Below, one piece after another: positions 1 through 53,157 of a DNA stretch of 64,000 nt. The stretch is from an uncultured cyanobacterium. Its GTDB lineage: Bacteria; Cyanobacteriota; Vampirovibrionia; Vampirovibrionales; JAGQHJ01. The position numbers were made by a program, and so were the translations under genes. Position 1 is the stretch's first letter. Every line of letters starts with the position of its first letter. The stretch is taken from contig CALAJO010000033.1 of assembly GCA_937922745.1 (NCBI GenBank), positions 2,250 through 66,249 on the forward strand. Direction: 5' to 3'. A model generated the notes under the pieces. The model worked only from the letters and a program-made list of their open reading frames with translations, made no database searches and was not told the DNA's origin.

Positions 1-353
1 AGAAAGTCCGGCAGTTTTTTCAGCTGCTTGGGCCCCTGGAACTGCAAAGAGAGTTCACCCAATTCAAAAATCTGCTCCTTGATTAAAAACCGGAAAAACA
101 TTTTCAGGGCGCTCAGTTTTCGGGCGATGCTGCTTTTGGCAAGCTGCTGGCTGTTGAGGAACTGGCTGAACTGTCCCGGTACCCGTCGCAGGTCATCCGG
201 CTCTATCACGTCCAGTTGGGAAAACCAATCGATAAACAGATCCAGATCCTTGCTATAGGCGCGGAGCGTATTGGGGGATAAATCCCGTTGCACGCTTAAA
301 TTGGTGAGAAAGGCTTCGCGCCCATCCTTAAACCGCTCTAAAACGCTTTCCAT
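1..353 (-). CDS. Tyrosine recombinase, XerC/XerD-like (N-terminal part; gene continues beyond window start)
   Basis: Own translation of the minus strand from the ATG at 353-351: MESVLERFKDGREAFLTNLSVQRDLSPNTLRAYSKDLDLFIDWF...SSIARKLSALKMFFRFL. This is the typical Xer/integrase SAM-like core-binding domain. It is absent from the ORF track because there is no stop in the window. Confidence 0.7.
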   Translation of the reverse strand, partial: MESVLERFKDGREAFLTNLSVQRDLSPNTLRAYSKDLDLFIDWFSQLDVIEPDDLRRVPGQFSQFLNSQQLAKSSIARKLSALKMFFRFLIKEQIFELGELSLQFQGPKQLKKLPDF

Positions 354-522
354 AGTAATCATTATAGCGATAATTTATCTTACTTTGGGCTTACAGGTGT
401 AGGAGTCTTTACTAGAAGGTGCAACAATGTTTAAATTTAGTGATTAATTTATAGAAAAATTGTACATACAGTAAATATTGGTAACTTACTCTCAGCTTTT
501 TGTAGTGAATAAGGAATTTCTG

Positions 523-1320
523 ATGAGAATCCAATCCTTACACCCTGGCATAACCGTGAAAATAAATGCCGCAACATCAATGAGACATCCCGTTGTTGAT
601 CCGGCGGTTCGGTTAGGACAAAGCAATGAGAGGAAAAAGCCTGAGATTTTGCAGGTCAAGGGTATCTCAATGGGTATTATAAGATACCCGATCACAACGG
701 TGGAAATAACAAATCCTGCGATTTTTATTGCAACGCAAATTCCTGAAATGAAGGATGTAGTGGTTGGATATAAAGAGAAGCTTAGAGTAGCGTTTGATCC
801 GCCCAGCGCGGCGATAAGTCATAGACTGAGACCAGTAATGGAATTTGAGTTGCCAGAAGAAATATTAAGACAAACCCGCTATGGTCAACCTATAGAATTG
901 ATTTTAAAGCCTGAGAGAGATCCTATTCACAGAATAATAAGTGGGCGACCTTATGTGGCGGAAGTAAACACAACTGAAATTTTGAAGCCCTCCAGCGACG
1001 TGGGCATAACTGATGAAACCACGAAGTTGACGATGCCCCCAGAGATAAGAGGTATTGTGGGCGGATTTTACTCCAACCAGAATAATAGCCGTTTTTATAT
1101 TAAGGTGTTTGTGGATGCCGTTGATGCAGCCCAAAAAAACATTGCTACCGAGCATACTTTTGAAGTAGACAAGAAAGTTTATGATGGGTTGCAAAACAAA
1201 GATGAAGTAGGCTTGGATCGAATTGAGCGCCGTAACCCATGGAAACGCTTTCGACAAGGCCGGTACGAAGTCGTATTGGATTATGCCGGGCTCATAAAGA
1301 AAATAATAGAAAATCAATAA
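523..1320 (+). CDS. Hypothetical protein
   Basis: 280-aa ORF in the track (TTG at 478). The first ATG is at 523 (MRIQSLHPG...). No motif recognised. Confidence 0.45.
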   Translation: MRIQSLHPGITVKINAATSMRHPVVDPAVRLGQSNERKKPEILQVKGISMGIIRYPITTVEITNPAIFIATQIPEMKDVVVGYKEKLRVAFDPPSAAISHRLRPVMEFELPEEILRQTRYGQPIELILKPERDPIHRIISGRPYVAEVNTTEILKPSSDVGITDETTKLTMPPEIRGIVGGFYSNQNNSRFYIKVFVDAVDAAQKNIATEHTFEVDKKVYDGLQNKDEVGLDRIERRNPWKRFRQGRYEVVLDYAGLIKKIIENQ

Positions 1321-3027: not shown

Positions 3028-3621
3028 TCAAAAGCAAATGCTTAGTTTTTGCCGAACCGGCCCTTTGTAGCCAATGGCCCAAAGGTTAAAGCGGGTTTTG
3101 TTGACGTCAACCTCTGCGAAGCCAGCCTCTTCCAGCTTCTTTCTCAGGCTTTTTGCGGTAAAGCCGGTTTTATGAGCCATAAAGTGGTTTCCTTTGGCTA
3201 TCGGCGGACGATGGCCAAACAGGACGTCGATTGGGCTGATGGGCCCATCCGCGGACTGGTAAGCCGGTTCCTCCAACTGGTCATCCACAATGTATTGCGA
3301 AATATCCTGCAAATCCGGTACATTGACGATGGCGAAGCCGCCGGGCTTGAGAACCCGGTAAAACTCCTTTAAGGCAACAGGGACTTCGTGGGCGAACAGA
3401 TGCTCCAGGTTCTGGGCAGACCAGAGGGCATCCACGGATTGGGAAGGAACTGCCGCCATATCGGTAATGGAGGCAATAATATCCGGCGCCACGTCAGGAT
3501 CCAGATCCAGTCGCACCTCTCGCCAGTTCGCTGTCCGAAAGGGCTCCGGTAGTTTGTGAGGGTTATATCGCCCACAGCCGACATGCAGAATAATATGCTG
3601 CTGCTGTTCAGCAACGTCCAT
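3028..3621 (-). CDS. Class I SAM-dependent methyltransferase
   Basis: 197 aa. Motif I is LHVGCG, followed by VRLDLDP and LKPGGFAIV (post-I/II motifs of the Methyltransf_11 type). Confidence 0.8.
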   Translation of the reverse strand: MDVAEQQQHIILHVGCGRYNPHKLPEPFRTANWREVRLDLDPDVAPDIIASITDMAAVPSQSVDALWSAQNLEHLFAHEVPVALKEFYRVLKPGGFAIVNVPDLQDISQYIVDDQLEEPAYQSADGPISPIDVLFGHRPPIAKGNHFMAHKTGFTAKSLRKKLEEAGFAEVDVNKTRFNLWAIGYKGPVRQKLSICF

Positions 3622-3744
3622 TGTCTATGAATCCCCAAAATCGCTCCTACTGATATCCATTATAAGGATCAGTCCTTTGTATCGATGGATTGTGCCTGAA
3701 AATCCACTTTGCAGAGGACATGGCTGGCCCTTCAGTCCTGAGGT

Positions 3745-3906
3745 TTAGTAATAGGCTTTGGGCAGGTCCAGTGGCGGCAAGGTGGAGGTCGTGACGGGGT
3801 AAGGCCTGATCATCATCACAACGGCAGCCAGGAGGCCGGCAACCAAAAGCCAGCCCACAACAATCAGGCTGAAGCGAACAAGGGGGTGTTGGGTAAGAAT
3901 CGTCAT
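3745..3906 (-). CDS. Small membrane protein (hypothetical)
   Basis: Internal ATG at 3906 preceded by GGAGAACCCAAT. The 53-aa product has one strongly hydrophobic helix (FSLIVVGWLLVAGLLAAVVMMI). Confidence 0.35.
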   Translation of the reverse strand: MTILTQHPLVRFSLIVVGWLLVAGLLAAVVMMIRPYPVTTSTLPPLDLPKAYY

Positions 3907-4076
3907 ATTGGGTTCTCCTGTCATTATTTGGATAATTTCAGGATAACGCGGTGTAAGCCTTTGAGGGCTTGGGTTATGACAGTTTTTCCGGGTGTCATAT
4001 CGCGATTGGAAAAAATGGACGAACGAACCCATTTTTGCCGTATGCTAAAAAGGCACCGAATGGGAATAAGCCTGAG

Positions 4077-4496
4077 ATGCCTGGCCCGCTTTTGATTTTT
4101 TATGACGCCGATTGCAGCCTTTGCCAACATGCCAAGGCCCGACTGGAGCGGATTGACCGAAGCAACCAATTGCGTTTTGTCCCGCTCCAGGACCCGGTTG
4201 TGGCGGAAAAGCTGCCGGATGTGCCCGCCTATCAACTGCGGCAAACCATGCATGTGCTGAGGCCGGACGGGCAGTATTTTGCCGGGGCTGCGGCTTTTCG
4301 GGAGGTTGGCCAGGTGATTAGCCCGGCGTCGCCTGCGGGCTTGGGGTTAAGGCTGTTTGCCGGGCTGACGCGTGTTCCGGGTGTGCTGGACGTTGCGGAG
4401 TGGGTTTACCGAAAGGTGGCTGAAAACCGTTATAAATTCAGGTTTAACCCAACCGAATGCACGGTTTGCGATATCCGGGGGCCGCACCGGCACTAG
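4077..4496 (+). CDS. DCC-family thiol-disulfide oxidoreductase (DUF393)
   Basis: The sequence LLIFYDADCSLCQHAKARLERIDRSNQLRFVPLQ matches the D-C-x-x-C signature of the DCC1-like family. Start placed at Met37 of the track ORF. Confidence 0.7.
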   Translation: MPGPLLIFYDADCSLCQHAKARLERIDRSNQLRFVPLQDPVVAEKLPDVPAYQLRQTMHVLRPDGQYFAGAAAFREVGQVISPASPAGLGLRLFAGLTRVPGVLDVAEWVYRKVAENRYKFRFNPTECTVCDIRGPHRH

Positions 4497-5113
4497 GGCA
4501 CTGTAACAGTAGGCTTTTCCGCCGGGCGGATGGTTTTGACCAGCGAGGCGATAGACTGGCTGAGCGCGATGCCATCCGTTGAGACAAAATGCTGGTTCTC
4601 CCGTGTCAGGTTCCAGGGAAGATGCCCCCTGGTGTTGGAGGTAGACGACAATTTAACGATATTGCCGTCCTCAAAATCAAGCCGCAACACCCAGTTGGGA
4701 TAATCATCGGTGTGTTCGATCACTTCAACCGGCTTCGTTGTGGATTTCCAGGGTTCCGCCTGCACCGCGTCCATTAGCGCCTTGATTTGCCCGCTTTGAA
4801 CCACGCTTTGATGCGTCCGGGTCTGCTTGGGCTTGGTGCTGTCTCCGGGGATTTTGCTGAGTGTGGCCTGGGATTGATACGTTTGATGATCCGCCGCCAG
4901 GGTGAGGGCGTATTCCTCTCGGATGGCGTGGGGGCTTAATCCAAGCCAGGAGTAATGGATGAGAACCTGCTGCGGCAGATCGCTTTTGGGCAGGGCCGGT
5001 TTGCCAGGCGCTGCATTGTTACAACCAATGGTGAGAATTAAAAAAGAAATGCTGGATAAAAAAACAAAAATAACGGACACAACGCCCGGCGCGAGCGATG
5101 ATTTTTTCCGCAT
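4493..5113 (-). CDS. Putative lipoprotein (hypothetical)
   Basis: From Met33 the protein reads MRKKSSLAPGVVSVIFVFLSSISFLILTIGC, a signal peptide plus a lipobox-like L-T-I-G-C. Confidence 0.5.
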   Translation of the reverse strand: MRKKSSLAPGVVSVIFVFLSSISFLILTIGCNNAAPGKPALPKSDLPQQVLIHYSWLGLSPHAIREEYALTLAADHQTYQSQATLSKIPGDSTKPKQTRTHQSVVQSGQIKALMDAVQAEPWKSTTKPVEVIEHTDDYPNWVLRLDFEDGNIVKLSSTSNTRGHLPWNLTRENQHFVSTDGIALSQSIASLVKTIRPAEKPTVTVP

Positions 5114-5233
5114 GCCACGCTCCTGTTTCAACCTGATGCGACCCAATCCATTATAGCCCATCCCAGCCATAAGAGGGCTTGTGTGTATCGGGCAGACCAC
5201 TCCGGGCAATCGCGCCGGAAGTAAAGGGAAGGA

Positions 5234-5734
5234 ATGGGTTTGTCGATAAAAGGCTTAATCGAGGAAAATTGCCTGATGCCCCAAAATTGCCTCCATTGCC
5301 AGCAACCTTACCGGCCTCCCGAGAGCCTGAAAAAGCAGGAGTTTTGCGAAGCGTGTGCCGCTGCCTACGACGCGGCCTTTGTTAAAATCCACCAGTTTAT
5401 CCTGGATCACGACAAGCCGCAGGGCTACTCGGCAAAGGATATTGAGTGGGTCATGACGGCTAACGAATTGCCCAGACGCTTTGTTCAAAAATTTTTTAAC
5501 GAAAGCGGTTCGCAGAAAAGCCTGATTGAAGCCAGCCGAAGCACTTGTTCCCGCTGTAATAAGGATCTGTTGCCTCACGAACGCCGGTATTGCACAGCAT
5601 GCAGCCAAACCACGTTAAACCTGGCGCGGGAGATTGATGAAAACAGGGTAGATGTTGCAATACCAGGTCGAAAAACGTTGAAGCGCCGCAACGCGAACCG
5701 GAGTGAACATCGGTATGGCCTGCGCCGGGATTGA
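5234..5734 (+). CDS. Hypothetical protein with two CxxC...CxxC zinc-ribbon-like motifs
   Basis: 166 aa containing CLHCQ...CEAC and CSRCN...CTAC pairs. Confidence 0.45.
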   Translation: MGLSIKGLIEENCLMPQNCLHCQQPYRPPESLKKQEFCEACAAAYDAAFVKIHQFILDHDKPQGYSAKDIEWVMTANELPRRFVQKFFNESGSQKSLIEASRSTCSRCNKDLLPHERRYCTACSQTTLNLAREIDENRVDVAIPGRKTLKRRNANRSEHRYGLRRD

Positions 5735-10191: not shown

Positions 10192-10270
10192 GCCTTTACC
10201 GCGTGCGCAAGGCACTTTAAAAATAATGCGTTTTTAATTCCGGTAACCTTCTTAAAGAAGGCTTAAAAAA

Positions 10271-10315
10271 TGGTGGGCGATGACGGGCTCGAACCGCCGA
10301 CATCCTCCTTGTAAG
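10271..10315 (-). pseudogene. 3' half (nt 32-76, with CCA) of the host tRNA-Val(UAC), displaced by prophage insertion (attL)
   Basis: Minus strand reads CTTACAAGGAGGATGTCGGCGGTTCGAGCCCGTCATCGCCCACCA. It pairs perfectly with the 5' half at 53060-53022 (acceptor GGGCGAT/ATCGCCC). Confidence 0.9.
10308..10315. repeat. attL core (CTTGTAAG, the anticodon-loop sequence)
   Basis: Identical 8-mer to 53022-53029. Sequence identity between the two junctions stops exactly at its edges. Confidence 0.8.
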
Positions 10316-10410: not shown

Positions 10411-11532
10411 ATGAAGTATGCAAAAAACGACCCTCAAACCACCAAAAGTGAGTACAAAGTGAGTAGTTTTTCAGGGGGTTTTTTGACCGTTTCCGAGGTT
10501 GCCCAGATCTTGGGGAAGACCCGGAAAACGATTACAGAGTGGTGTAAGAGCGGTAAGCTCATGGCGACTCCCAAAGAGTATGGTGGAGCAACCGCCTATC
10601 AGGTTCACCAACAAGCTGTTGAAGTGTACCTTCAGGGCCAAGCTGCCTTGGAGGAAATGAAACGCCGAAAAAAACAGATAGGTGTGGCGGACCATCGACC
10701 CTATATGGAAGGCTGGAAGAAGGCGGCTTCCGCTGGGCTCATTGGGAAAAGAGCCTACAGTAAGAACACTCTGAATGCCTATGAGTACAACATGAACCGG
10801 TACTTTGAGAAGTACGAGCTGGTGACCTTCAAGAACATCAAGGCAGAACTAGCAGAGTGGCCAAATCATCCGGCAAAACGACGGCTGTTTTACCGTGCCG
10901 TGATTTCCTATGCCAAGTATCTGATTATGGAAGAGGCATTGGACCCGGAGTTTTTGGAGAAAGCTATGGATAAAGAGTTTGCTCCAAAAGAAAACCCGAA
11001 TCCAAAACAGCATGTTGTCTCCGAGGATGACCTGTTCAAGCTGGTAGCGGCCTGTAAGAATCGGACGGATAGAGCCATCATTATGTTGTTGGCCAGTACC
11101 GGAATGCGGGCCAGTGAGCTGTGTGGTTTGACCCTAGAAGATATTGACCTGGAGAAACAAGAACTGAAGATTCGTCAGGCCAAGTGGGATAAGGCAAGAC
11201 CTCTGGGGTTCAATAAGGAAACTGCCATTGCCGTTCAAAGCTACCTATTGCATGAGCGGCCACAAACGCCTTTGCCGTATCTGTTTTTGAACCGGCATAA
11301 GAAACAAATGAGCCGGAGTGGTTTATTCCAAAGGGTTCAACGGATGGCCAAGGATGCCGGAATATATGCCTTTCCCCATGCCCTTCGGAGCCGGTTTGTA
11401 ACTCACAACCTAACAATGGGACGAAACCCAGAGGATGTACAGAAGGCGTGTGGGCACTCCAGCATCACTACGACCATTCGATACAACCGTCGGAAGACTC
11501 AGGAAATGGTGGACTCTATGAAAAATTGGTGA
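10411..11532 (+). CDS. Tyrosine integrase with N-terminal excisionase-type HTH domain (Int1)
   Basis: RBS AGGAGA before the ATG. HTH is LTVSEVAQILGKTRKTITEWCKSGKL. Catalytic residues are present: STGMRASEL (Arg), HALRSRF (H-x-x-R), GHSSITTTIRY (His...Tyr). Confidence 0.9.
   Translation: MKYAKNDPQTTKSEYKVSSFSGGFLTVSEVAQILGKTRKTITEWCKSGKLMATPKEYGGATAYQVHQQAVEVYLQGQAALEEMKRRKKQIGVADHRPYMEGWKKAASAGLIGKRAYSKNTLNAYEYNMNRYFEKYELVTFKNIKAELAEWPNHPAKRRLFYRAVISYAKYLIMEEALDPEFLEKAMDKEFAPKENPNPKQHVVSEDDLFKLVAACKNRTDRAIIMLLASTGMRASELCGLTLEDIDLEKQELKIRQAKWDKARPLGFNKETAIAVQSYLLHERPQTPLPYLFLNRHKKQMSRSGLFQRVQRMAKDAGIYAFPHALRSRFVTHNLTMGRNPEDVQKACGHSSITTTIRYNRRKTQEMVDSMKNW
10446..10467 (+). repeat. Tandem 11-bp repeat AAGTGAGTACA-AAGTGAGTAGT (site A), candidate integrase arm-type site
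   Basis: It has the same two-unit architecture as sites at 33481-33502 and 52880-52901. It lies ~135 bp from the attL core, inside the 5' end of int1. Confidence 0.5.
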
Positions 11533-12406
11533 AGCTGGTTTTCATGGCCTCAATGACCTCCTCTTCAGAAGTTTGGCAGTAGGACCGGGTAGTGGTAATC
11601 TCCCGATGCCCACAGGCAATCTGAAGATAAACCAGGGGAACTCCGTTACGGACATTGATGGTCACAAAAGCCCGTCTCAAGGCGTGGGGTGAAACTGTTA
11701 CATTCACCCTACGCCCTAATTTTTGGAGCCGCTGGTAAAGTCCACTACGGCACAATGGCTTTCTTAAAGAGTTCTGGAGGAGAATATCGCTTGGCTTCAT
11801 GTGAGGACGAACTTTCAGGTAGTTCTCCAAAGCCAGCATCAGCCCATCACCGATACCCACTTTGCGTTCTTTACCCCACTTCCCACACCGGACCTTGAGG
11901 CGTCGGTCTTCAAAGTCGATGTCCTCCAATCTGAGGTCACAAGCTTCTGAGGCTCGCAAGCCCGTGGAGGCCAAGAGAATCATCAGCAACCGATCCAGAG
12001 GGTTCTTACAGGCTCCAATGAGTCTTTGGACATCCCCTTCCTTCACCGATAGTCGTTTGGGTGGCTTGTGAGGCTTTGGCTTGATACTTTTGGCCTTCTC
12101 CAAGAAGGAGGGATGAAGAGTCCCTTCTTGAACCAGGAACTTCCCAAAGCAGATTATGGCCCGATGGACCGATTTCCGTTTGGCAAACTGATCCGCCTTG
12201 ATGGAGGCCAGCTCTGTCTTAAGGTTCTCAAACGAAACCTGCCCATATCGCTCCAGGAAGAGGGTAACGTAGTAGCAATACTGGTTGTAAGTATGCCTAC
12301 TAAAAGGACGACCGGTCATCAAACCGGTCGCCATCGCTTTCTGCCAATCTTCAAAGTAGTCCGAATGTTTTCGGAACAGCTTGAAATTTTGCATAAATGA
12401 CTCCAT
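11516..12406 (-). CDS. Tyrosine recombinase, paralogue of Int1 without the HTH domain (Int2)
   Basis: ASTGLRASEA, HALRRAFVT and GHREITTTRSY are present. It aligns by eye with Int1 over the core-binding and catalytic domains. The 3' ends of the two genes overlap by 17 bp. Confidence 0.85.
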   Translation of the reverse strand: MESFMQNFKLFRKHSDYFEDWQKAMATGLMTGRPFSRHTYNQYCYYVTLFLERYGQVSFENLKTELASIKADQFAKRKSVHRAIICFGKFLVQEGTLHPSFLEKAKSIKPKPHKPPKRLSVKEGDVQRLIGACKNPLDRLLMILLASTGLRASEACDLRLEDIDFEDRRLKVRCGKWGKERKVGIGDGLMLALENYLKVRPHMKPSDILLQNSLRKPLCRSGLYQRLQKLGRRVNVTVSPHALRRAFVTINVRNGVPLVYLQIACGHREITTTRSYCQTSEEEVIEAMKTSFTNFS

Positions 12407-12480: not shown

Positions 12481-12864
12481 ATGTCACTTAGTAAAGCTAT
12501 TATTGGAATTTGTGACATGCCAATCACTGATGATTCAAAGGCTAAGTTGAAAAATCGCCTTGTTAAAGCAATGGGTCATCTCAATGCTGTTCACCGAATG
12601 GTGGATGAAAAGCGCTACTGTATTGATGTTTTGCACCAGCTTAAAGCTGTGCAGGCAGCTTTAGATAAGGTGTCAGAGGAGATTTTGAAGCAGCACCTGG
12701 AGACCTGCGTTGTCGATGCCGTAAGAAACCAGGATGAACGTCGGGTTATAGATGAACTGGTACAAGTCTTTCGGCGGGCACCCCAACTTGATGTTTCGGT
12801 TGAAGATTTGAATATGATTTTCTATCAGAAGGAATGTTGCCATTCATCCCCACCGGGGGGTTAG
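12481..12864 (+). CDS. CsoR/RcnR-family metal-sensing transcriptional repressor with a C-terminal ECCH extension
   Basis: LKNRLVKAMGHLNAVHRMVDEKRYCIDVLHQLKAVQAALDKVSEEILKQHLETCV carries the C...H-x3-C ligand pattern of Cu(I)-sensing CsoR. An alternative start is at 12517. Confidence 0.8.
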   Translation: MSLSKAIIGICDMPITDDSKAKLKNRLVKAMGHLNAVHRMVDEKRYCIDVLHQLKAVQAALDKVSEEILKQHLETCVVDAVRNQDERRVIDELVQVFRRAPQLDVSVEDLNMIFYQKECCHSSPPGG

Positions 12865-13026
12865 CTTACTTGTCGGTTTTATTTCGGCTAGTGTAAGAAA
12901 ACTGGGAATAATCCTGAGAGGTACTTAACGTGTTTTGTGCTATTCACTGCCTAATCTGTCAGATGATGCCTGTATCTATTCCATTGCTCCTGGCTGTTAC
13001 GGGCTTTGTTTCTGCAAGACATTGTA

Positions 13027-14094
13027 ATGGTTGTTTCAGAAACCATGGCAAACGATTTTCAGTTAAGTAGCCCAGGCTACCAAGCCGAACTGAAAGCATT
13101 GCAAGATGCTGAAAAAGGCTTGGTATTCCAGTATCAGTGCAGGTTGTTTTCAGATTTTTTCCGTTCAGTATGGTTTAGAAATCCTTATACAATCCGAAGC
13201 CTGCCGGAAACAATACACAAACTTCGATTTTCATTCAAGTTTTCAGATCTACAACAAAGAAGAGCCTTGTTTAATTATCAAGCCAGTAAGGGAATGCCTC
13301 TATCCGAGAGTTTTATGGACAGCTTTCTTCCTTACCGGGCAGGCATCCGTTACAGCCCGGAATTCATGAAAGTTTATGAAAGCTATTTGGAAAGATTATC
13401 CAGGCAATTTCTGTTTTTCAAGGTGACGTACTATCCTCATTGTTGCGAGAAAGTCCCCCTTACAGACTGGTCTTCTATTCACCTATTTTGTGCCCAAGTC
13501 CTGGAAGTTTTTCGAAACCGACTTGATCTGGTGGACAGGCTACTCACGCAATGCCCGCATGGCTTTCACATTCAGTTCTGTACACAGACCTTGCGAACCT
13601 ACTTTGATCCGGGTTATATCCAAATCAACCCGATCGTTTTATGGGGAGAAACAACTTCTGAACAATCCCCAGGGGTGACTCACGCCATGTTGCACTTGTT
13701 AAGCCAAGGGCAGGATGGCAAGCAAACGGATTTTCTTCCTGATATGACGGATGCACAGCGCCATACAATTCGAGCGTTGAAAACACGTCTTGAACAACAG
13801 TTTGCAAAACAAGATACAGGTATCATGAGTGTTTTTCGAACGCTATTGACAAACAACACAACGATTGGCTTTAACGGGTATGCGTTCTTGGACCAGCAAG
13901 CTGAGTTTTTGACTACAGCAATTGAAAACTGTCTGAAACAACCAGAAGCAGTTCAGCAGACCGAAGCAGGTAAAACCGTATTGGATTTCTTTAGCGGGTA
14001 TTTCCGATGGGAGGAGCATGCTATCCGCAACGAAGAAAAATCGAGTTTTCATGAAGTTGGATTTTGTGATAAACTGACCCCATTAGTAAAATAA
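13027..14094 (+). CDS. Hypothetical Cys/His-rich protein (contains HCCEK)
   Basis: 362-aa ORF in the track (TTG 13006), with the first ATG at 13027. No family recognised. Contains YYPHCCEKV, CPHGFHIQFC and THAMLH. Confidence 0.5.
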   Translation: MVVSETMANDFQLSSPGYQAELKALQDAEKGLVFQYQCRLFSDFFRSVWFRNPYTIRSLPETIHKLRFSFKFSDLQQRRALFNYQASKGMPLSESFMDSFLPYRAGIRYSPEFMKVYESYLERLSRQFLFFKVTYYPHCCEKVPLTDWSSIHLFCAQVLEVFRNRLDLVDRLLTQCPHGFHIQFCTQTLRTYFDPGYIQINPIVLWGETTSEQSPGVTHAMLHLLSQGQDGKQTDFLPDMTDAQRHTIRALKTRLEQQFAKQDTGIMSVFRTLLTNNTTIGFNGYAFLDQQAEFLTTAIENCLKQPEAVQQTEAGKTVLDFFSGYFRWEEHAIRNEEKSSFHEVGFCDKLTPLVK

Positions 14095-14115
14095 ACAGAC
14101 AAGAGAGGTGATTCG

Positions 14116-14292
14116 ATGAAACTCCAATTCTCAGGCGCTATTCAGCAAGCTCAACAAGCGCTAGCTGGCTTTGTGAAACAGGCTCCTGCTAATACTTCAC
14201 AGAATCAGGGAGCCAATTTGCATTTCAACGGAATCAAGGCAAAACCTCAACTGAAGGCAGATGCTGTCCGATTTGGCGGTTGTTGCGGATAA
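14116..14292 (+). CDS. Small protein (58 aa) ending in ...VRFGGCCG
   Basis: Own translation: MKLQFSGAIQQAQQALAGFVKQAPANTSQNQGANLHFNGIKAKPQLKADAVRFGGCCG. RBS is AGAGAGGTGATTCG. It is below the ORF-track size cutoff and a terminator follows. Confidence 0.4.
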   Translation: MKLQFSGAIQQAQQALAGFVKQAPANTSQNQGANLHFNGIKAKPQLKADAVRFGGCCG

Positions 14293-14314
14293 GTTATCCA
14301 GGAACCCTATTAAC

Positions 14315-14346
14315 AAAAAAGGGACGCTGTTTAGTGTCCCTTTTTT
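14315..14346. terminator. Bidirectional intrinsic terminator between convergent cargo units
   Basis: The hairpin AAAAAAGGGAC-GCTGTTTAGT-GTCCCTTTTTT serves the plus-strand 58-aa gene. It also serves the minus-strand 87-aa gene, whose stop lies in the loop. Confidence 0.6.
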
Positions 14347-14594
14347 CCTTTTTGCTGAACCTTTTCCCGCCCTTGGCTTGTTGCAAAGAACCGGGGAGGT
14401 GGCCCTCCTTGTACTTGAGCATCGCCTGTTTCTTGTAGTTGAGACACGTCTCGAATAAATTCGTCCATTTCTATTTGACCTGGATAAGACTGCCGGGCTT
14501 GATAGAAGGTAATTGCACCAGGTTGACTCGCCAATGTTTGTAAGGTTTTGTCGACTTGGCCAAAGTGAATTGATTGAACAGCTTTGATATTCAT
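14331..14594 (-). CDS. Small hypothetical protein (87 aa, N-terminal SIHFG motif)
   Basis: ATGA start/stop overlap with the upstream 113-aa gene. Begins MNIKAVQSIHFGQ... Confidence 0.45.
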   Translation of the reverse strand: MNIKAVQSIHFGQVDKTLQTLASQPGAITFYQARQSYPGQIEMDEFIRDVSQLQETGDAQVQGGPPPRFFATSQGREKVQQKGKKGH

Positions 14595-14932
14595 GAGTTA
14601 CTTCCGTCCTGTTTTCTCTTTTTTCGTCTCTCAGTAAGGCAAGCCATTTCACCGCCATTGTTAGAAGAAGGGGATCTTTTACCGCCACCGTTACCACCTT
14701 CACAGCAACTATGCCCAATGGGTGCGGGAGAAACTGGAGCTGAGGTATTTAAGAAAGCTTTAGCTGGTGAAGCAAACATTAGAACTACTCCCATGAGCAT
14801 GACGGAAAAAACGGTGCGTATAGGCTTATGTGTTTTGGAAGTGCTTCCTGTAAAATGAATATTCGAAGAAATCGTTCTCGTTGGTGAAGCAAAGGTTTGA
14901 GTCTTTAAAAAAGAATGTTTGGTAACTCTCAT
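14591..14932 (-). CDS. Small membrane-anchored protein (113 aa) with SCCEGGNGGG motif
   Basis: ATG start, one hydrophobic helix (VFSVMLMGVVLMFA), then PIGHSCCEGGNGGG. The N-terminal part contains NIHFTG. Confidence 0.5.
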   Translation of the reverse strand: MRVTKHSFLKTQTFASPTRTISSNIHFTGSTSKTHKPIRTVFSVMLMGVVLMFASPAKAFLNTSAPVSPAPIGHSCCEGGNGGGKRSPSSNNGGEMACLTERRKKRKQDGSNS

Positions 14933-15005
14933 TAATCTTTCTCTTCATACCTGTATAACTACATTGTCTGAGACTATCGTAAACTATCCAAGTTGATTGG
15001 AAAGC

Positions 15006-15024
15006 TAACCCCTGGGTAGGGATA
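15006..15024. promoter_or_regulatory. Candidate CsoR-type operator (TAACCCCTGGGTAGGGATA)
   Basis: GC-rich pseudo-palindrome; its reverse complement TATCCCTACCCAGGGGTTA has the TATCCCT-N5-GGGGWTA pattern. It is 74 bp upstream of the 113-aa gene and is a near copy of 16759-16777. It resembles known CsoR boxes (TACCC..GGGTA type). Confidence 0.45.
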
Positions 15025-15066
15025 CTATTTTAGAAATACGGTAGTATAAACCCAATAAAACTAACC

Positions 15067-15471
15067 CTAATCCGACTTAGAGGCGGTAAAGATACGCTTT
15101 AAATCTTTCCAAAACCCAGTAAAGAGATGTTTAAACCAGTCGATGACTGATCGGAGCCAGCTTTTTTGGGGTTGGGTAGATTGGGTTTTGGGGCTTGCTT
15201 TAGAGGTTTTGTCAATCGTACAGGAATCTCCTTTGCAAACCGGCTCGATAGGAGAAGTTTCCATAATTTTGGCATTGGGTTCAGACATTCCTGCACAGCA
15301 CCCCTTGCCGGGGTTGAGATAAAAATTTCGGCAGCAAGGTGGTAAGGTTTCCCAAGCTTTCTTGAACTTGGCTGGCACATGTTCCGGTGGAGGAGGGATC
15401 TCTTCCTTGCCAAAGCGAACGTTAGAATTTTTCGAAGCAATAGCAGACGAAAATATTACACTATGAGGCAT
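15067..15471 (-). CDS. Cys-rich small protein (134 aa; PPCCRN and KGCCAG motifs)
   Basis: ATG start overlapping the upstream gene by 11 nt. Two vicinal Cys pairs plus CKGDSC. The N-terminus contains NVRFG. Confidence 0.5.
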   Translation of the reverse strand: MPHSVIFSSAIASKNSNVRFGKEEIPPPPEHVPAKFKKAWETLPPCCRNFYLNPGKGCCAGMSEPNAKIMETSPIEPVCKGDSCTIDKTSKASPKTQSTQPQKSWLRSVIDWFKHLFTGFWKDLKRIFTASKSD

Positions 15472-16432
15472 TGTTGGATGCCCCCGTATTATTGCCGAAA
15501 TGAGCCTTTATCCAGTTGCCAAAACCTCCCACAATATCTCCCAGGAGGCTGATACATATTACATTTCCACAGCCACAGTTTGCACCGACTATCATTGAAC
15601 CAAACATGACATTTTTCCCTTGTTTTGCCGTTGCCTGCGCCGCCTTTCCCAAAATACCCCATCGCCCTATGGCGTTAACCACTTTGGGGAACACCAGGAT
15701 ACTTGCCAATGTAAACCCAGTGGATACGATGATTTTAGTTACCAATTTTGGAATTTTGGCCTCTTCTTCCAAAGGAGAAGCGATTTTTTGATCCACATAA
15801 TTTGCAGCAGAAACCACACCAGCAACCAACGGTGCCATGATTCCTAATTCAATAAAATACCGCTTAGAGAAGCCAACCATTAATGCGTGGATTACCCCAA
15901 CCGTTTCCATTGCCTGGAGCCATACGGGGGGTTTCCAATCCATTCCTTTATTTAACTGATTGACAGCCAGAATGCCAGTCGCCACTCTCAGATAGGCTTT
16001 CCAGTCCGTAGGTAACAAGGAACGTCCCGGAAGTGTACGGACAGGCAATTGATGCGTCAACATACCAATTGTGAATAGCATGGCAGCCTCAGCCAGATAA
16101 CGCCACCGCATACTACTTTGATGTGTCGGTAAGGTGCAGTGTTTTTCAGAGCAAGACTCTTTCTTAATCTGGGCAATAGGCCGATAAGAAGAGTGCACCT
16201 TAAGGCCAGTATGGTTTTGCGTATTTATGCTGGAAATACCGACTTTAGCTGTGGGCTTTGGCTGTGATATAGAGGGGTAGAAGGTCTCGAATCTGGGTTG
16301 CGACAAAGTTGTATATGGAAGAGCGGCTTGAAGTTGATTGTTAGCAGGCATAGCAAAAGAACCTGGGTTAGTATACCAGCCAGGATAAGCAGAATAGGAC
16401 TGTGCAAATGCACTAAAGGGTGCTGCGCTCAT
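15461..16432 (-). CDS. Polytopic membrane protein (hypothetical; C-terminal CGCG and AHFG motifs)
   Basis: Start moved to the ATG at 16432, preceded by GAGGAGGAAAG. Several hydrophobic helices are visible (LAEAAMLFTIGML, VATGILAV, METVGVIHALMVGF, LGIMAPLVAGVV, IIVSTGFTLASILVF, MFGSMIVGANCGCGNVICISLLGDIVGG). Confidence 0.6.
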   Translation of the reverse strand: MSAAPFSAFAQSYSAYPGWYTNPGSFAMPANNQLQAALPYTTLSQPRFETFYPSISQPKPTAKVGISSINTQNHTGLKVHSSYRPIAQIKKESCSEKHCTLPTHQSSMRWRYLAEAAMLFTIGMLTHQLPVRTLPGRSLLPTDWKAYLRVATGILAVNQLNKGMDWKPPVWLQAMETVGVIHALMVGFSKRYFIELGIMAPLVAGVVSAANYVDQKIASPLEEEAKIPKLVTKIIVSTGFTLASILVFPKVVNAIGRWGILGKAAQATAKQGKNVMFGSMIVGANCGCGNVICISLLGDIVGGFGNWIKAHFGNNTGASNNAS

Positions 16433-16697
16433 CTGGCTTTCCTCCTCTCTTATCCTCTTGTAGCAAGTTTGTTTGATCAACAGCCTTCGGTTTTCTCCTA
16501 AGCTTGGATAATACCCAAGTTACTCCAACCCCGACTGTTCCGCTTCCCGCAAGCATCATTAGAATCTCCAAAATGGAATGCGCTTCGTTGTGATGACCAA
16601 ATCGGGGTAGCTGGTGACGGGTAGGCACTATATGAGAGCTTTTCTTGGGAAAAGCAAGCCTCTCATCAGAATGTAAAGACAAAGATTGTACTATCAT
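16413..16697 (-). CDS. Small membrane protein (94 aa, RFGHHNEAH motif)
   Basis: ATG start with one TM helix (ILEILMMLAGSGTVGVGVTWVL). It is the first gene of the unit behind the 16759-16777 operator. Confidence 0.4.
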   Translation of the reverse strand: MIVQSLSLHSDERLAFPKKSSHIVPTRHQLPRFGHHNEAHSILEILMMLAGSGTVGVGVTWVLSKLRRKPKAVDQTNLLQEDKRGGKPDERSTL

Positions 16698-16758
16698 CTG
16701 GTACTCTTGGATTAATGTAATAACTTCTATGTTAGTCGTTCAAAGAAATTCCAAAAGC

Positions 16759-16777
16759 TATCCCTGGGGTGGGGATA
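16759..16777. promoter_or_regulatory. Candidate CsoR-type operator (TATCCCTGGGGTGGGGATA)
   Basis: The arms TATCCC/GGGATA are inverted repeats around a G-rich spacer. It is 62 bp upstream of the 94-aa gene, preceded by AAAGCTA as at 15001. Confidence 0.45.
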
Positions 16778-16826: not shown

Positions 16827-18578
16827 TTAATCAAAATGAAAACCAAAAAGACCCCCATCTTCACGATCAGAAAGTTTAGTTTCTAATATATATTCTTCGA
16901 GATTAAATCCATCAGAAAGTCCATCTGATGGTAAATCATCGGAATTCATTGTAACAATATATTGAACACCCAGTTCTTGACACTTTTGGTGTCCTATTTC
17001 AAGGGCTTTGGCTTTCTGACGTTCATCGACACCATCAAAGAGATGGCTATCATGGATAAGAAAACCGGGGCCGGGATGATGCTTTTGTGTTAATTCAAGT
17101 AACATCATATCGAAGCAAAATATTTTCATATTGCTAATCCCCTTGCTTCTGGAGGAGTCTAGCTTTACATCAAAGTGGGGACCATTTTCAGTAGGATCAA
17201 TAATTAAACTTCCAGCCTTTTCATATAGAGCATTGGATAATCTCTCAAAAATCAGAATGGCTTCTTTTCTAATATCGTCACGCTCAATGTAATCGTCTTG
17301 AAGCTGACGAGAAAGCTGTGCCCGTTCTATTTTTAGCGTGGTGGAGTCACGTTCAACCTGTTCTGCCACTTTTAATTTTTCGCTTAAGTGCTCAGCTTCG
17401 CCTCTTAGTCTGCTAAATTCCTCTTGAAGTTTCGTAAAATGGTCCAAAGCACCACCAGAACGTAATATCTGCATAATCTCGGATCTTCTTTTGTCCAGGG
17501 CAGCCTTTTCTCGGTCCCGATCCGAGATTCTGGTATTTACAGAAGTTATTTCTGAGCGTAAGTGAGCTTTTCTATTGGAAACAATTTTTTCATGAAATTC
17601 TTTGACATCTTCAAACCGTCTTATAATTTGATCAGGTAGAATTATACCTGCTTCTTCGTATAGTTTTTCCAAACTGGTAAAAGCGGGTTCTTGTTCTTGC
17701 GTAAGGCTGTCTTGAAGTTTGGATAATAGTTCTCCGTCTAAAGTATTATCGCTTGATAACTTCCCAATTTCTTTTGTTAGTTTAGAAGCCTCTTTTTCAA
17801 GCTCCTTATATTCAGGAACCACTTGAAATGATTCCAACTGCTCATACAGACTTTTTACCTTATCTTCAACAATGGTTAGTCGAGTTTTCAAATCCGAGGA
17901 TGAACTTAAAACTTCAGGCATATTGCCGGATTTTACTATCTTTTTAAGTTCTTTTATTCCCTTTTCTTTATCCCTAATTTGTTGGAAAGCCTGTGCAATA
18001 GACCAGTCAAGGCCAATTAAATAAGATATGCAAACCTGCTCATCCCAGGCTTGAGGCGTTTGATTACAGGATGTTGGAGAGGAGAAGCCTCCATCATTCA
18101 CACGTCTTGCAAAATAAGGAAAAAGCTTTCTAAAAGTTGGTTTATATTTGGATTGATCCTCTGTTGCCAAAGGGAAGTCAAACATGTAATAACCAAGCAA
18201 CTGTTTCCAGTTGTCATTTGTGATGTTATATTCGGTTTTACCCTTGGTGGGTTTAATGGGCCAGTCAGAATAATCCTGATTCGACAGATAAACCTTGCCA
18301 GAGTTCTTTCCAGAACGGCTAACCTCAATGGCTTTTCCAGCTAAGTCAAATTCAAGTAAAAATCTATAATCTTCGAGTTTTTGGTGAGAAAAAATAGTGT
18401 CCTTAACATTTGATCCCAACAAGAAATGAATAAGTTCAACAAAACTGCTTTTACCTGCTCCGTTTCTCGATTGGCGATCTGTTGCCCCTTTACTCTTTTC
18501 TGCTAATAAAATATTCAGTCCAGGATTGAATATTAAGGTTTTAAATGACTCAAGGTCACTGGAAACTTTCATAATCAT
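16827..18578 (-). CDS. ABC-type ATPase with long coiled-coil insert (DUF2326/YydD-like), ATPase component of an ABC-3C-type system
   Basis: Walker A is SRNGAGKSSF near the N-terminus. A ~300-aa heptad-rich region rich in Glu/Lys/Leu follows. Walker B/D-loop is PGFLIHDSHLFDGVD near the C-terminus. Confidence 0.75.
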   Translation of the reverse strand: MIMKVSSDLESFKTLIFNPGLNILLAEKSKGATDRQSRNGAGKSSFVELIHFLLGSNVKDTIFSHQKLEDYRFLLEFDLAGKAIEVSRSGKNSGKVYLSNQDYSDWPIKPTKGKTEYNITNDNWKQLLGYYMFDFPLATEDQSKYKPTFRKLFPYFARRVNDGGFSSPTSCNQTPQAWDEQVCISYLIGLDWSIAQAFQQIRDKEKGIKELKKIVKSGNMPEVLSSSSDLKTRLTIVEDKVKSLYEQLESFQVVPEYKELEKEASKLTKEIGKLSSDNTLDGELLSKLQDSLTQEQEPAFTSLEKLYEEAGIILPDQIIRRFEDVKEFHEKIVSNRKAHLRSEITSVNTRISDRDREKAALDKRRSEIMQILRSGGALDHFTKLQEEFSRLRGEAEHLSEKLKVAEQVERDSTTLKIERAQLSRQLQDDYIERDDIRKEAILIFERLSNALYEKAGSLIIDPTENGPHFDVKLDSSRSKGISNMKIFCFDMMLLELTQKHHPGPGFLIHDSHLFDGVDERQKAKALEIGHQKCQELGVQYIVTMNSDDLPSDGLSDGFNLEEYILETKLSDREDGGLFGFHFD

Positions 18579-18823
18579 TGTTTAACCCTCTTTACCAAGA
18601 GGCCACGTTCAAAGGTAATAGCGTCCAGTATAAAAAGTAAATCTATGGAAAGGATGAACCAGTCATAGTTAATAGGTGATTTTTGTCTTTGATGGGGAAT
18701 TGTTTTTCTGAATTCATCCCAAACCTTGGAAACCGTTTTTGGACGGTTTAAAAGCCGTAGAATTTCAGCACCCACTGAAATCAAGGCTCTGTCAGTTTTA
18801 AGATGCTTAGTTGGTAATATCAT
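18575..18823 (-). CDS. Small helical 'middle component' of the ABC-3C-type system
   Basis: 82 aa with 4-nt start/stop overlaps to both neighbours. Size and position match the three-component architecture. Confidence 0.55.
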   Translation of the reverse strand: MILPTKHLKTDRALISVGAEILRLLNRPKTVSKVWDEFRKTIPHQRQKSPINYDWFILSIDLLFILDAITFERGLLVKRVKQ

Positions 18824-19728
18824 ATTGCCTCCTTTGCATCTTCAAAAATGTCACAACGCTCGAAAAAATAACTCATAACGGCCAGTATTGCTGCTTCTCT
18901 AAGAGGCACATGTCTTTCTGAGCCACCAGTAAAAACTTGGAGAGCACGGAATATATCATCAGAAGATGAACCATGGGATTTCAACACTTGGTAGTAATCC
19001 CTGTAGCTTTGCGCTATTTGTTCTCCAAAGTCGGGATCAGGGTAGCCATTAAAAAACTGTTCAACAAGGTGTTCTTTCATCCGTCCGTGTCGCAACAGGA
19101 CTTCTACATCATATGATAAGCCATTAGCTTGTAATTTTTCCAGAGACGGAGCAGTAACTGGATAATTAGGATCCGGTTTATTTTTTTGTATATGGTCTAA
19201 AACAGGTTTTATATCATCAAATGTTAGGGTTTGAACTTGTTGAGAAGTGGGCATGGCTCCAAAAAGCTCGATTAGACGTTCCCTAGGAAGAAACAAAATT
19301 GTTTCTCTTATACTTTCATAACCAAAAACGCCAACAGAAATGACGGGTTCATTACCGTCCAGAGTATTTAAATGACGTACTACATCAGGGGGTAAAGAAC
19401 GCTGGTTGGTAACAAATCTCCAAACAGCCATCTCCGTCCAATGTGTTTTTGCTCCCGTAAAGTCTTCACCTATCTTTGTAAGCGTATCCCTTTGATCCAT
19501 TAACCCCTGGGGAGCATAACATTGATAGACAGTTTGCTCGGACTGCAAATACCCATCACACTTTCGGTCACCAATATTACCGTAATTCCTAACGACTATA
19601 AAATCGTCACCGTGCCTCATCAACATGAATCTTTCAAAAAAGCTTTGGAACTCATTGCCATGTTTTTCACAGCAAGCAAGTCTTATGTGTAGGCCATAGA
19701 AGCTTTTTTCCAATTCATCCATCATCAA
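18820..19728 (-). CDS. Putative effector component of the ABC-3C-type system
   Basis: 302 aa and first gene of the trio. The N-terminal NIGDRKCDGYL...VYQCY is reminiscent of an Mrr-like nuclease core, but the canonical Lys is not evident. Confidence 0.5.
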   Translation of the reverse strand: MMMDELEKSFYGLHIRLACCEKHGNEFQSFFERFMLMRHGDDFIVVRNYGNIGDRKCDGYLQSEQTVYQCYAPQGLMDQRDTLTKIGEDFTGAKTHWTEMAVWRFVTNQRSLPPDVVRHLNTLDGNEPVISVGVFGYESIRETILFLPRERLIELFGAMPTSQQVQTLTFDDIKPVLDHIQKNKPDPNYPVTAPSLEKLQANGLSYDVEVLLRHGRMKEHLVEQFFNGYPDPDFGEQIAQSYRDYYQVLKSHGSSSDDIFRALQVFTGGSERHVPLREAAILAVMSYFFERCDIFEDAKEAI

Positions 19729-32959: not shown

Positions 32960-32983
32960 GGTGTTTGCTCCTTTCATTTCATT

Positions 32984-52728: not shown

Positions 52729-52767
52729 TTTTTGTTCAATTTTTTCACTTTACCTTTTGAAGAAATA

Positions 52768-52843
52768 TGGTGGGCGTTGACAGGCTCGAACTGCCGACAT
52801 CCTCCTTGTAAGGGAGGCGCTCTACCAACTGAGCTAAACGCCC
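52768..52843 (-). tRNA. tRNA-Val (anticodon UAC), prophage-borne, complete with encoded CCA
   Basis: GGGCGTTTAGCTCAGTTGGTAGAGCGCCTCCCTTACAAGGAGGATGTCGGCAGTTCGAGCCTGTCAACGCCCACCA folds as a canonical 76-nt cloverleaf (7/4/5/5-bp stems, loop CTTACAA). Confidence 0.93.
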
Positions 52844-52879
52844 GTAGCAGGTTTCCAGGGTTTGGAAGACTTTAATCAT

Positions 52880-52901: not shown

Positions 52902-53021
52902 CCAGTCTTGCGAAGGAAAAAATCAGGGGCTATAATGCCCATGAGCCGTTGGCTTGAGATCATTGTACCAGCTAGCATTTTGGCTCTTTCTCCTTTCTGG
53001 ACTTTTACTAATCAAATCATG

Positions 53022-53029
53022 CTTGTAAG
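53022..53029. repeat. attR core (CTTGTAAG)
   Basis: Identical to 10308-10315. Confidence 0.8.
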
Positions 53030-53060
53030 GGAGGCGCTCTACCAACTGAGCTAATCGCCC
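53022..53060 (-). pseudogene. 5' half (nt 1-39) of the host tRNA-Val(UAC) at attR
   Basis: Minus strand reads GGGCGATTAGCTCAGTTGGTAGAGCGCCTCCCTTACAAG, then continues into non-tRNA sequence CATGATTTGATT. Confidence 0.9.
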
Positions 53061-53157
53061 GTAACAAGACACTGATATAGGATACGAAAACCGAAGCGAA
53101 AAATCAACGAAGAATTTTCGGCTGCGTCTGTGAGAATTCACAGGCTTTCCGGAGGCG

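Follow-up and report, generated by a model that had tools for sequence, protein, structure and literature searches.

We analysed a 64,000-nucleotide stretch of DNA from an uncultured member of the Vampirovibrionales (contig CALAJO010000033.1; hereafter the window, numbered from its first letter) that carries a 42.5-kb integrated element, and in it a cassette of eight adjacent genes at 12.5–16.7 kb (Table 1). The gene calls bear out the layout given in a first-pass annotation of the same DNA, with two integrase genes on one side of the cassette (10411–12406) and an ABC-3C system on the other. One of the eight genes encodes a CsoR-type repressor. Direct searches with Pfam, PHROGs, NCBIfam and PADLOC assigned no family to the remaining seven proteins; the annotation had called them unrecognisable, which holds for direct searches and fails for the protein of 362 amino acids (aa), in profile searches a probable remote relative of Peptidase_M90. 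Chance open reading frames (ORFs) are ruled out, as the genes are conserved across loci of differing G+C content. Besides csoR, the gene layout suggests three transcription units: the M90-like gene with the 58-aa peptide gene on the forward strand, the 113-aa gene with the 87-aa gene on the reverse strand, and the 94-aa, membrane protein and 134-aa genes, also on the reverse strand. The 58-aa gene is preceded by the Shine-Dalgarno sequence GAGAGGTG, and the 87-aa and 113-aa genes overlap by 4 nucleotides (nt).

Table 1. Features of the window and gene content of homologous loci (TM, transmembrane; HTH, helix-turn-helix; genes of a locus are listed in order, with the C-terminal end of the peptide in brackets)
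Feature	Position	Strand	Remarks
attL	10266-10315	.	50-nt direct repeat, 3' part of tRNA-Val; blastn 92% to 52763-52812
Tyrosine integrase 1	10411-11532	+	N-terminal excisionase/HTH-like region; NCBIfam XerA/XerD-like, PHROG integrase
Tyrosine integrase 2	11516-12406	-	NCBIfam match; 42% identical paralogue of integrase 1
csoR	12517-12864	+	called start M13, giving 115 aa; 127-aa ORF from 12481
Operator C	12846-12867	+	upstream of M90-like/58-aa unit; overlaps last codons and stop of csoR
M90-like gene	13027-14094	+	355 aa; 362 aa if from upstream TTG
58-aa peptide gene	14116-14292	+	C-terminal end ..DAVRFGGCCG
Hairpin with T/A runs on both sides	14315-14346	.	between convergent units; bidirectional terminator candidate
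87-aa gene (eighth gene)	14331-14594	-	Cys-free; IHFGQ..PPRFFAT
113-aa gene	14591-14932	-	GHSCCEGG patch; single-pass or secreted
Operator A	15002-15023	-	70 nt upstream of 113-aa gene
134-aa gene	15067-15471	-	PPCCRN and KGCCAG
Membrane protein gene	15461-16432	-	323 aa, polytopic; NCGCGNVIC
94-aa gene	16413-16697	-	single-pass; RFGHHNEAH immediately before TM helix
Operator B	16755-16776	-	58 nt upstream of 94-aa/membrane/134-aa unit
ABC-3C system	16827-19728		DUF2326+CTD10, MC6, CTD10; strong PADLOC PDC-M68 match
attR and intact tRNA-Val(TAC)	52763-52843	-
Locus L001			operator, M90-like, membrane, 48-aa (..RFGGCCG), 114-aa
Locus L002			operator, 96-aa, 93-aa, membrane, 53-aa (..KFSSCCK), 146-aa
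Locus L003			RcnA-like efflux gene, 80-aa, operator, membrane, 141-aa
Locus L006			140-aa, 90-aa (homologue of 87-aa), 49-aa (..RFSGCCG), operator
Locus L007/L008			71-aa, membrane, 134-aa; convergent 60-aa (..RFGGCCG) and M90-like
Locus L009			membrane, 137-aa, operator, 112-aa
Locus L091/L090			membrane, 69-aa (..FSGCCH), 139-aa
Locus L004/L005			M90-like, 69-aa (..KFAGCCDP)

The csoR product is, as annotated, a repressor of the CsoR/RcnR type: it matches PF02583 with E = 3.2e-26 (92 bits against a cut-off of 22.8), and its best matches in the PDB are the CsoR proteins of Thermus, Mycobacterium tuberculosis and Geobacillus (E = 1e-15 to 1e-13), followed more weakly by InrS (E = 5e-11) and FrmR (E = 5e-5). 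The best NCBIfam model is RicR (E = 2e-14), and the match to the RcnR model (E = 3.5e-11) lies far below that model's cut-off. Counted from M13, residues C35, H60 and C64 align with the ligands C36, H61 and C65 of M. tuberculosis CsoR, with the 'YC' and 'HLETC' motifs coinciding, while Y34, directly before C35, and E80, at the Glu of 'IEEL', correspond to the second-shell pair Y35/E81. The W position is Ile3, in place of the His found in RcnR and InrS. The assignment of ligand fingerprints to effectors is established for this family, x-C-H-C being the mark of Cu(I)-sensing CsoR, and the second-shell Tyr and Glu couple copper binding to DNA release. Judged by its x-C-H-C ligands and Tyr/Glu second shell, the regulator is a predicted Cu(I)-type CsoR. 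The evidence argues against a formaldehyde sensor of the FrmR type, the non-metal sensor that would have undone the annotation: the protein has Pro2 and Cys35 as FrmR does, yet it carries a Cys at position 64, where FrmR has no thiolate, and the FrmR match is by far the weaker. Ile3 likewise speaks against an RcnR or InrS assignment, for which the W-position His (H-C-H-H or H-C-H-C) is the mark. The regulator has a further match (E = 2e-9) to phrog_6180, a PHROG of unknown function, which indicates that CsoR-like proteins occur in other phages.

When the whole window was scanned with the 22-nt pattern AAGCTAWCCCNNNGGTRGGGAT, three matches were returned, compared with none in 100 shuffles. Two of these are the operators that had been annotated at 15006 and 16759, and the third, operator C (ATCCCCACCGGGGGGTTAGCTT), is new. 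Read toward the gene, the sites have the form ATCCCY-N5-GGGGWTAGCTT, and each of the three units has one, in a common orientation, 58–160 nt before the start codon. As G/C-tract pseudopalindromes with A/T flanks they fit the form of CsoR type 2 sites, which are A/T-flanked G/C-tract pseudopalindromes (PMC3902906). A sigma-70 consensus scan produced no convincing promoter at the operators; we offer TAGCTT as a suggestion for a −10 element, with no conserved −35 element seen across the operator sites. Operator C is identical to the sites upstream of the operons in L002 and L006, which are intergenic there. In the window, the last six csoR codons (SSPPGG) together with the stop codon are operator C sequence. 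Since the end of csoR thus equals an operator that is intergenic elsewhere, part of the CCHSSPPGG section of the repressor's C-terminal tail (ECCHSSPPGG) may be a by-product of a fusion between csoR and the operator.

Searches of 5.8 billion clusters with the membrane, 362-aa and 134-aa proteins found only a handful of relatives, to which a metagenome scan added two further contigs, and the cassette families recur together in about 10 contigs. The same 22-mer precedes homologous genes, in the same orientation, in five unrelated metagenomic contigs, L001, L002, L003, L006 and L009; the G+C content of these contigs spans 39% to 61%, and that of their cluster regions about 45% to 61%. We found no csoR in the available DNA of the homologous contigs, none of which is viral; among the loci examined, csoR stands beside the cluster only in the window. 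The co-occurrence of these genes with csoR that the first-pass annotation had proposed to look for therefore did not materialise: the families accompany one another, and no csoR lies nearby in the other loci. Because the same families follow the same operator with no csoR nearby, the gene set in those organisms is most simply read as a conserved regulon, putatively under a trans-encoded CsoR. A scan with membrane-family motifs did not find the cluster in 185,579 GTDB species representatives, and the aconitase that flanks the element has matches of at most 62% identity among the GTDB representatives, from many phyla. Scans of IMG/VR with the membrane and 134-aa families found no cluster either, GenBank phages gave no blastn match to the region, and an operator scan of IMG/VR returned 9 matches, roughly the number that we estimate for chance, none of them beside a cluster homologue.

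Two further neighbourhoods were noted in these loci. In L090, an ORF of 169 aa (338–847, reverse strand) that ends in ..DHCCGRGCHTCGNRGG runs convergent to the 134-aa homologue and is a further neighbour bearing adjacent cysteines. In L007, the M90-like and peptide genes follow genes for an ATP-binding cassette (ABC) ATPase and an HI0933-like flavoprotein on the same strand (3030–5281, reverse), and all four are possibly one operon.

The cassette proteins are strikingly enriched in adjacent cysteines. Such pairs occur in five of the eight, not in six as had been counted, the membrane protein having CxCx4C instead. Six pairs in 1279 aa exceed the background about 40-fold: 865 ORFs from unrelated genomes contain 0.11 pairs per 1000 aa, with a pair in 3.8% of ORFs, and against this background the Poisson probability of the cluster is about 1e-8. 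Elsewhere in the window, 52 long ORFs hold a single pair in 17,171 aa, and five or more pair-bearing proteins arose in none of 20,000 within-protein shuffles. The argument that a motif so rare does not recur in neighbouring genes by chance is thus borne out by shuffles, by the other window ORFs and by the 865-ORF background. The His-rich FGHHNEAH described in the 94-aa protein is also present, as RFGHHNEAH.

Conservation of the pairs differs between families. In the 58-aa family, the terminal Cys-Cys is kept in seven of seven distinct loci (the window and six others) and is followed by 1–2 residues; the peptide is hydrophilic, has no hydrophobic segment and is probably disordered. In the 134-aa family, both pairs are kept in all eight members (CCRNFYLNPGKGCC, LP[PGA]CCR[NS]FY[LE][NSK]PG..GCC), the invariant residues of the window protein being C46, C47, C58 and C59 (LPPCCRNFYLNPGKGCCAG). 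Its C-terminal amphipathic helix IDWFKHLFTGFWKDLKRI has a hydrophobic moment of 0.66 and no signal peptide was found, so the protein is predicted to be cytoplasmic and probably membrane-peripheral. Homologues of the membrane protein, 40–66% identical, are present in six loci, and all members carry three cysteines in the last hydrophobic helix, spaced CxCx4C or Cx3Cx6C (CGCGNVIC or C-ARG-C-SPGSII-C); the protein matches no transporter family, and profile searches of the PDB found nothing. The expectation that the Cys-Cys residues would be conserved in homologues thus stood for the 58-aa and 134-aa families and did not stand for the 362-aa and 113-aa proteins.

The remaining small proteins are less well anchored. 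The 87-aa protein is 43% identical to the 90-aa protein of L006. The 113-aa protein has one hydrophobic segment, at residues 41–59, followed by its His/Cys patch; no homologue of it is detectable by sequence, and its one counterpart, in L009 and preceded by the operator, shares only position and architecture (BLAST E = 0.11). The 94-aa protein likewise has one hydrophobic segment, here preceded by its His patch, and its architectural counterparts are small RFG[HC] proteins with a TM helix, encoded in L002 and L007 ahead of the membrane gene, at a similarity that is not significant.

The 362-aa protein has no direct Pfam match of its own. An exhaustive profile search with it collected 30 relatives, 15 of the 23 aligned members match Peptidase_M90 (PF06167; best E = 2e-16), and hhalign joins the cluster-type subfamily to the M90-positive relatives with a probability of 99.9% and E = 4e-33. 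The metal-site residues H219-x3-H223 are kept, and a third ligand, E293 (AEFLTT, the downstream EF[LF] motif), is nearly invariant across the 23 sequences. All 5–6 cluster-type members have Ala, Thr or Val in place of the catalytic Glu (H-[ATV]-x-x-H; H-A-M-L-H in the window protein, HEF[IVA]H in the relatives). PHGFH and C140 are invariant residues new to this type, and H178 and H181 of the window protein are invariant too. We therefore describe the 362-aa protein as a predicted divergent zincin of the M90 (MtfA-like) family that lacks the catalytic Glu. An AlphaFold2 model reached a predicted local distance difference test score (pLDDT) of 88.5 with 23 sequences, compared with 35 with 2 sequences. 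Foldseek gave as its best hints for this model leukotriene A4 (LTA4) hydrolase and 'lethal factor', with E values no lower than 1, and a profile search of the PDB with the M90-like family found nothing.

Active (HExxH) relatives of the M90-like protein are encoded divergently beside flgBC-fliEFGHI operons in L092 (8001–9314) and L104 (7001–8383), and the cluster copy of L001 (11563–20099) abuts flagellar rod and ring genes. The M90-like component may have a flagellum-linked origin.

Several known categories were tried for the cassette products and set aside. Lipidation, which the first-pass annotation had entertained, or prenylation of the C-terminal Cys-Cys is contradicted by the lack of a lipobox, a CaaX motif and eukaryote-type signals. 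Metallothioneins have far more cysteine than these proteins (6 of 134 residues; 2 of 58). A peptide of the MNIO/methanobactin type, among the ribosomally synthesised and post-translationally modified peptides (RiPPs), would call for a DUF692 protein, and there is none; for a RiPP cluster in general the small peptide is present, with no known maturase family and a sole enzyme-like protein that lacks its catalytic residue. No cluster protein has a Pfam or NCBIfam match to the Mer transport proteins (MerT, MerC, MerF). As a defence system the cluster has only weak PADLOC matches (E of about 5e-4 for two proteins, which we take as spurious), and its homologues are chromosomal and lie outside defence islands.

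The cassette lies inside a prophage. The att repeats at tRNA-Val bound a 42.5-kb element that comprises the integrases, the cassette, the ABC-3C system and a complete T7-like gene set: an RNA polymerase (RNAP; about 42% identical to those of LUZ100-type phages), primase-helicase, DNA polymerase and exonuclease, together with portal, capsid, tail, internal virion protein, fibre and terminase. The element thus has the tRNA att repeats, integrase, single-subunit RNAP and full gene set of an integrated temperate T7-like phage. Its RNAP/replication module runs on the reverse strand (about 33.0 to 19.8 kb) and its structural/packaging module on the forward strand (34.4 to 52.2 kb); this divergent arrangement (19842–52198) differs from the single-direction gene order of canonical T7-like genomes. 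The leftward early module opens with an anti-restriction-like protein (32081–32977, reverse strand; phrog_7245, E = 8e-87). The G+C content is 43.6% in the cassette, 38.5% in the ABC-3C system (the window minimum), 49% in the phage core and 51% in the host flanks, and ABC-3C looks like a separate acquisition beside the cassette. At the other loci, the cluster has a G+C content equal to or above that of its flanks. The cassette, deviating here and flank-like or higher there, is therefore foreign in the window and native in its relatives. The annotation of the module as T7-like phage cargo is accordingly right as to its place, inside an att-bounded prophage and with foreign G+C, and wrong insofar as it implies a phage-specific module: in relatives it is a chromosomal regulon. 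We regard it as a putative chromosomal regulon that was picked up by a phage, or by an island fused to one, together with its repressor gene. In L001 the cluster lies directly downstream of an aconitase gene whose product is 75% identical to the aconitase of the window, and in the window tRNA-Val and the prophage lie on that same aconitase side, an arrangement that would fit capture by imprecise excision.

The alternative, that integrase 2, the csoR cluster and ABC-3C form a separate integrative island tandem-fused with the T7-like prophage at tRNA-Val, concerns the carriage of the cassette and not its function, and we hold it to be somewhat unlikely. The integrase genes are convergent and overlap by 17 nt, and the pair may be the trace of two elements fused at one att site. 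The two integrases are paralogous, G+C is 38–44% over 12.4–19.7 kb compared with 49% in the phage core, no IMG/VR contig carries the cluster, and a partial second tRNA-Val (5' half; 53016–53066, 92% identical to 52799–52849) lies 217 nt from the intact gene and suggests an earlier integration or rearrangement at the site. However, a single att pair encloses everything, with no internal att copy found; the total of 42.5 kb fits the size range of T7-like phage genomes; and a position beside the integrase is the usual one for phage morons.

We propose, as the probable explanation and with modest confidence, that the cassette is a CsoR-repressed, probably Cu(I)-inducible, thiolate-rich and membrane-associated module, carried as phage cargo with its own repressor. 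With no inducer present, a tetramer of the phage-encoded CsoR would occupy the three 22-nt operators and hold the three units repressed; Cu(I) binding at the C35/H60/C64 site would release CsoR from the DNA and allow expression. The products would make up a set rich in thiolates that sits on or within the cytoplasmic membrane. Its members would be the 58-aa peptide, hydrophilic and probably disordered, whose C-terminus forms a Cys-Cys 'arm'; the 134-aa protein, peripheral and anchored by its amphipathic helix, with two Cys-Cys pairs on a predicted hairpin; the polytopic membrane protein, whose last helix holds three cysteines; the putatively zincin-derived protein, with the metal site kept and the catalytic Glu lost; and the small single-pass proteins, which carry His/Cys patches. 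Most likely, Cu(I) would be captured in the cytoplasm and then handed on to the membrane protein, or through it, to be buffered or exported. The module would have originated as a chromosomal regulon of a small uncultivated lineage, of which a lower-GC copy was captured at the integrase end; as it came with its own csoR, the cassette would need no outside regulator, and the lysogen would gain from it a trait that responds to copper (tolerance). The predicted regulatory part, that is the repressor family, its ligand set and the operators conserved across genomes, is well supported, whereas the inducing role of Cu(I), the binding of metal by the products and the direction of transfer are inferred from motif chemistry and from the precedents of Cox17, metallothioneins and Mer relays, and a benefit to the lysogen would be a further inference.

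A number of observations weigh against this proposal. No known copper gene (copA, copZ, cueO) is linked to the cluster in any locus, and the sole metal gene nearby, in L003, is of a Ni/Co efflux type; the x-C-H-C ligand set is shared by the cyanobacterial Ni sensor InrS. The operator is absent from L004/L005, which have the M90-like and peptide genes, and from L007. With no characterised member in any of the seven effector families, metal binding is read from motif chemistry. Adjacent cysteines occur in only two of six M90-like family members, where the second Cys alone is invariant; the L009 counterpart of the 113-aa protein has C..CPHH and no Cys-Cys; and the 113-aa and 94-aa 'families' are defined by position and architecture only. 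Foldseek searches of PDB and BFVD returned nothing significant for the M90-like model, so that the zincin fold is not confirmed and its assignment comes from sequence profiles.

The same architecture could answer another signal, either Ni(II)/Co(II), as for InrS and RcnR, or a soft metal such as Ag, Hg, Cd or Zn; this we judge unlikely. Apart from the residues shared with InrS, the nearest labelled relative is a metagenome-assembled genome (MAG) labelled 'Cyanobacteria bacterium', and an RcnA-like gene for Ni/Co efflux, whose product has a CCHHNHDH loop (L003 2152–2871; NF007454, E = 4e-18), lies directly upstream of the L003 cluster homologue. Vicinal Cys pairs are also a hallmark of Hg(II) handling, as in MerT, MerF and the MerA C-terminus. 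Yet the regulator lacks the W-position His used by RcnR and InrS, has a second shell of Tyr and Glu, as is typical for CsoR proteins that sense Cu(I), and finds CsoR proteins as its best structural-database matches; no cluster protein was found to match the MerR, MerA or MerT families; and all-thiolate, low-coordination motifs favour Cu(I).

A peptide pathway is, in our estimation, distinctly unlikely. Here the 58-aa product would be a precursor or a secreted metallophore-like thiol peptide, with its RFGGCC tail read by the M90-like protein and export through the membrane protein. In the window and in L001, L004 and L007 the M90-like gene indeed lies beside the peptide gene or close to it, the D-x-V-R-F-G-G tail resembles N-terminal motifs of active M90-like relatives, and a fold derived from a protease could act as a scaffold that binds peptides. 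This is countered by the loss of the catalytic Glu in every cluster-type M90-like member, by the absence of any known RiPP maturase family (MNIO/DUF692, radical SAM, YcaO), of a signal sequence on the peptide and of a transporter match for the membrane protein, and by L002, L003 and L009, which have the peptide and/or the 134-aa gene and no M90-like gene in the available DNA.

The small proteins share one further feature, a phi-[RKHQ]-F-[GS]-x motif (VRFGG, IHFTG, PRFGH) found in 19 of 23 small-protein sequences from five unrelated families, compared with a shuffle mean of 3; its density is 11.6 per 1000 aa against 0.35 in the other ORFs of the window, figures to be read with the motif having been defined post hoc, after the sequences were inspected. 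It recurs in the N-termini of distant active M90-like proteins and could be a docking, sorting or processing signal. That the small proteins are substrates or accessories, marked by this motif, of a lineage-specific export or flagellum-linked system on which CsoR control is a regulatory overlay and no sign of metal handling has in its favour these occurrences and the flagellar neighbours of two active M90-like genes and of the L001 cluster, but it is very improbable: the motif is C-terminal, not N-terminal, in the 58-aa family, the flagellar linkage holds in 3 loci only, and the invariant Cys pairs and the conserved CsoR operator are left unexplained.

Returning to the copper-responsive module, we can place it among characterised systems. 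CsoR copper operons (cso of M. tuberculosis, copZA of Bacillus subtilis and Streptomyces) share with it the repressor family, the C-H-C site with its Tyr/Glu shell and G/C-tract pseudopalindromic operators close to the regulated genes; they differ in that the cassette has no P-type ATPase or CopZ chaperone, encodes seven families without a characterised member and has an invariant TAGCTT extension on its operators. The RicR regulon of M. tuberculosis (lpqS, mymT, socAB, mmcO) is controlled by a CsoR paralogue and consists of scattered units that encode membrane proteins, small orphans and a metal-binding protein rich in Cys. CsoR-type control of several units with small orphan and membrane proteins is the likeness here; in contrast, the cassette effectors are unrelated in sequence to those of RicR, and its units are clustered, mobile and marked by vicinal-Cys motifs. 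MerT and MerF have vicinal cysteines in membrane helices and MerA has a C-terminal Cys-Cys arm, so flexible C-terminal Cys pairs, TM-helix cysteines and a logic of thiol-to-thiol hand-over of a soft metal have a precedent there, although the cassette proteins are not homologous to Mer proteins, the regulator is CsoR and not MerR, and there is no reductase. Cox17 and metallothioneins bind Cu(I) at low coordination through cysteines that lie side by side or a short distance apart; the cassette proteins have no sequence or fold relationship to either, and their Cys content is far below that of metallothioneins. As for Peptidase M90, the C-terminal ~190 aa of the 362-aa protein are, by sequence profiles, putatively homologous to PF06167-positive proteins, with two His and a downstream Glu aligned, while the cluster type lacks the HExxH Glu, has PHGFH and C140, and is paired with a gene for a Cys-Cys-tailed peptide. 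Finally, like prophage morons, the cassette is an independently regulated accessory block of foreign G+C beside an integrase within the att sites, alongside ABC-3C; unlike them, it brings a metal-sensor regulon and the repressor for it, and it was not found in IMG/VR contigs or GenBank phages.

A CsoR-controlled metal-response system is thus known in kind, and the effector families are all undescribed. We put forward only tentatively the further idea that they make up a machinery for Cu(I) trafficking or sequestration by vicinal-cysteine proteins that has not been described before, in which a peptide with a Cys-Cys arm would dock on a dead zincin, working with a tethered four-Cys hairpin protein and an intramembrane-triad protein and with a shared phi-R-F-G docking motif; it would supplement or replace CopA/CopZ in a little-known lineage and, as a cassette with its own regulation, be carried from host to host by a temperate T7-like phage.

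The immediate reach of these observations is narrow, because billions of predicted proteins yielded only about ten contigs with this rare family. The parts of bacterial copper homeostasis (P-type ATPases, CopZ/CupA chaperones, multicopper oxidases, Cus/Pco, and storage or metallothionein proteins) are generally regarded as a small set. A conserved CsoR regulon that does without those parts and relies on invariant Cys-Cys motifs would add copper-handling protein families to it, and with seven genes, three operators and one repressor it is a compact, testable set. The pseudo-zincin with its Cys-Cys-tailed peptide, together with the phi-RFG motif, provides leads on the reuse of a protease fold as a metal- or peptide-binding module. 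Finally, metal tolerance could move by lysogeny, as the sensor and the effectors of a complete metal-response unit travel here on one temperate phage.

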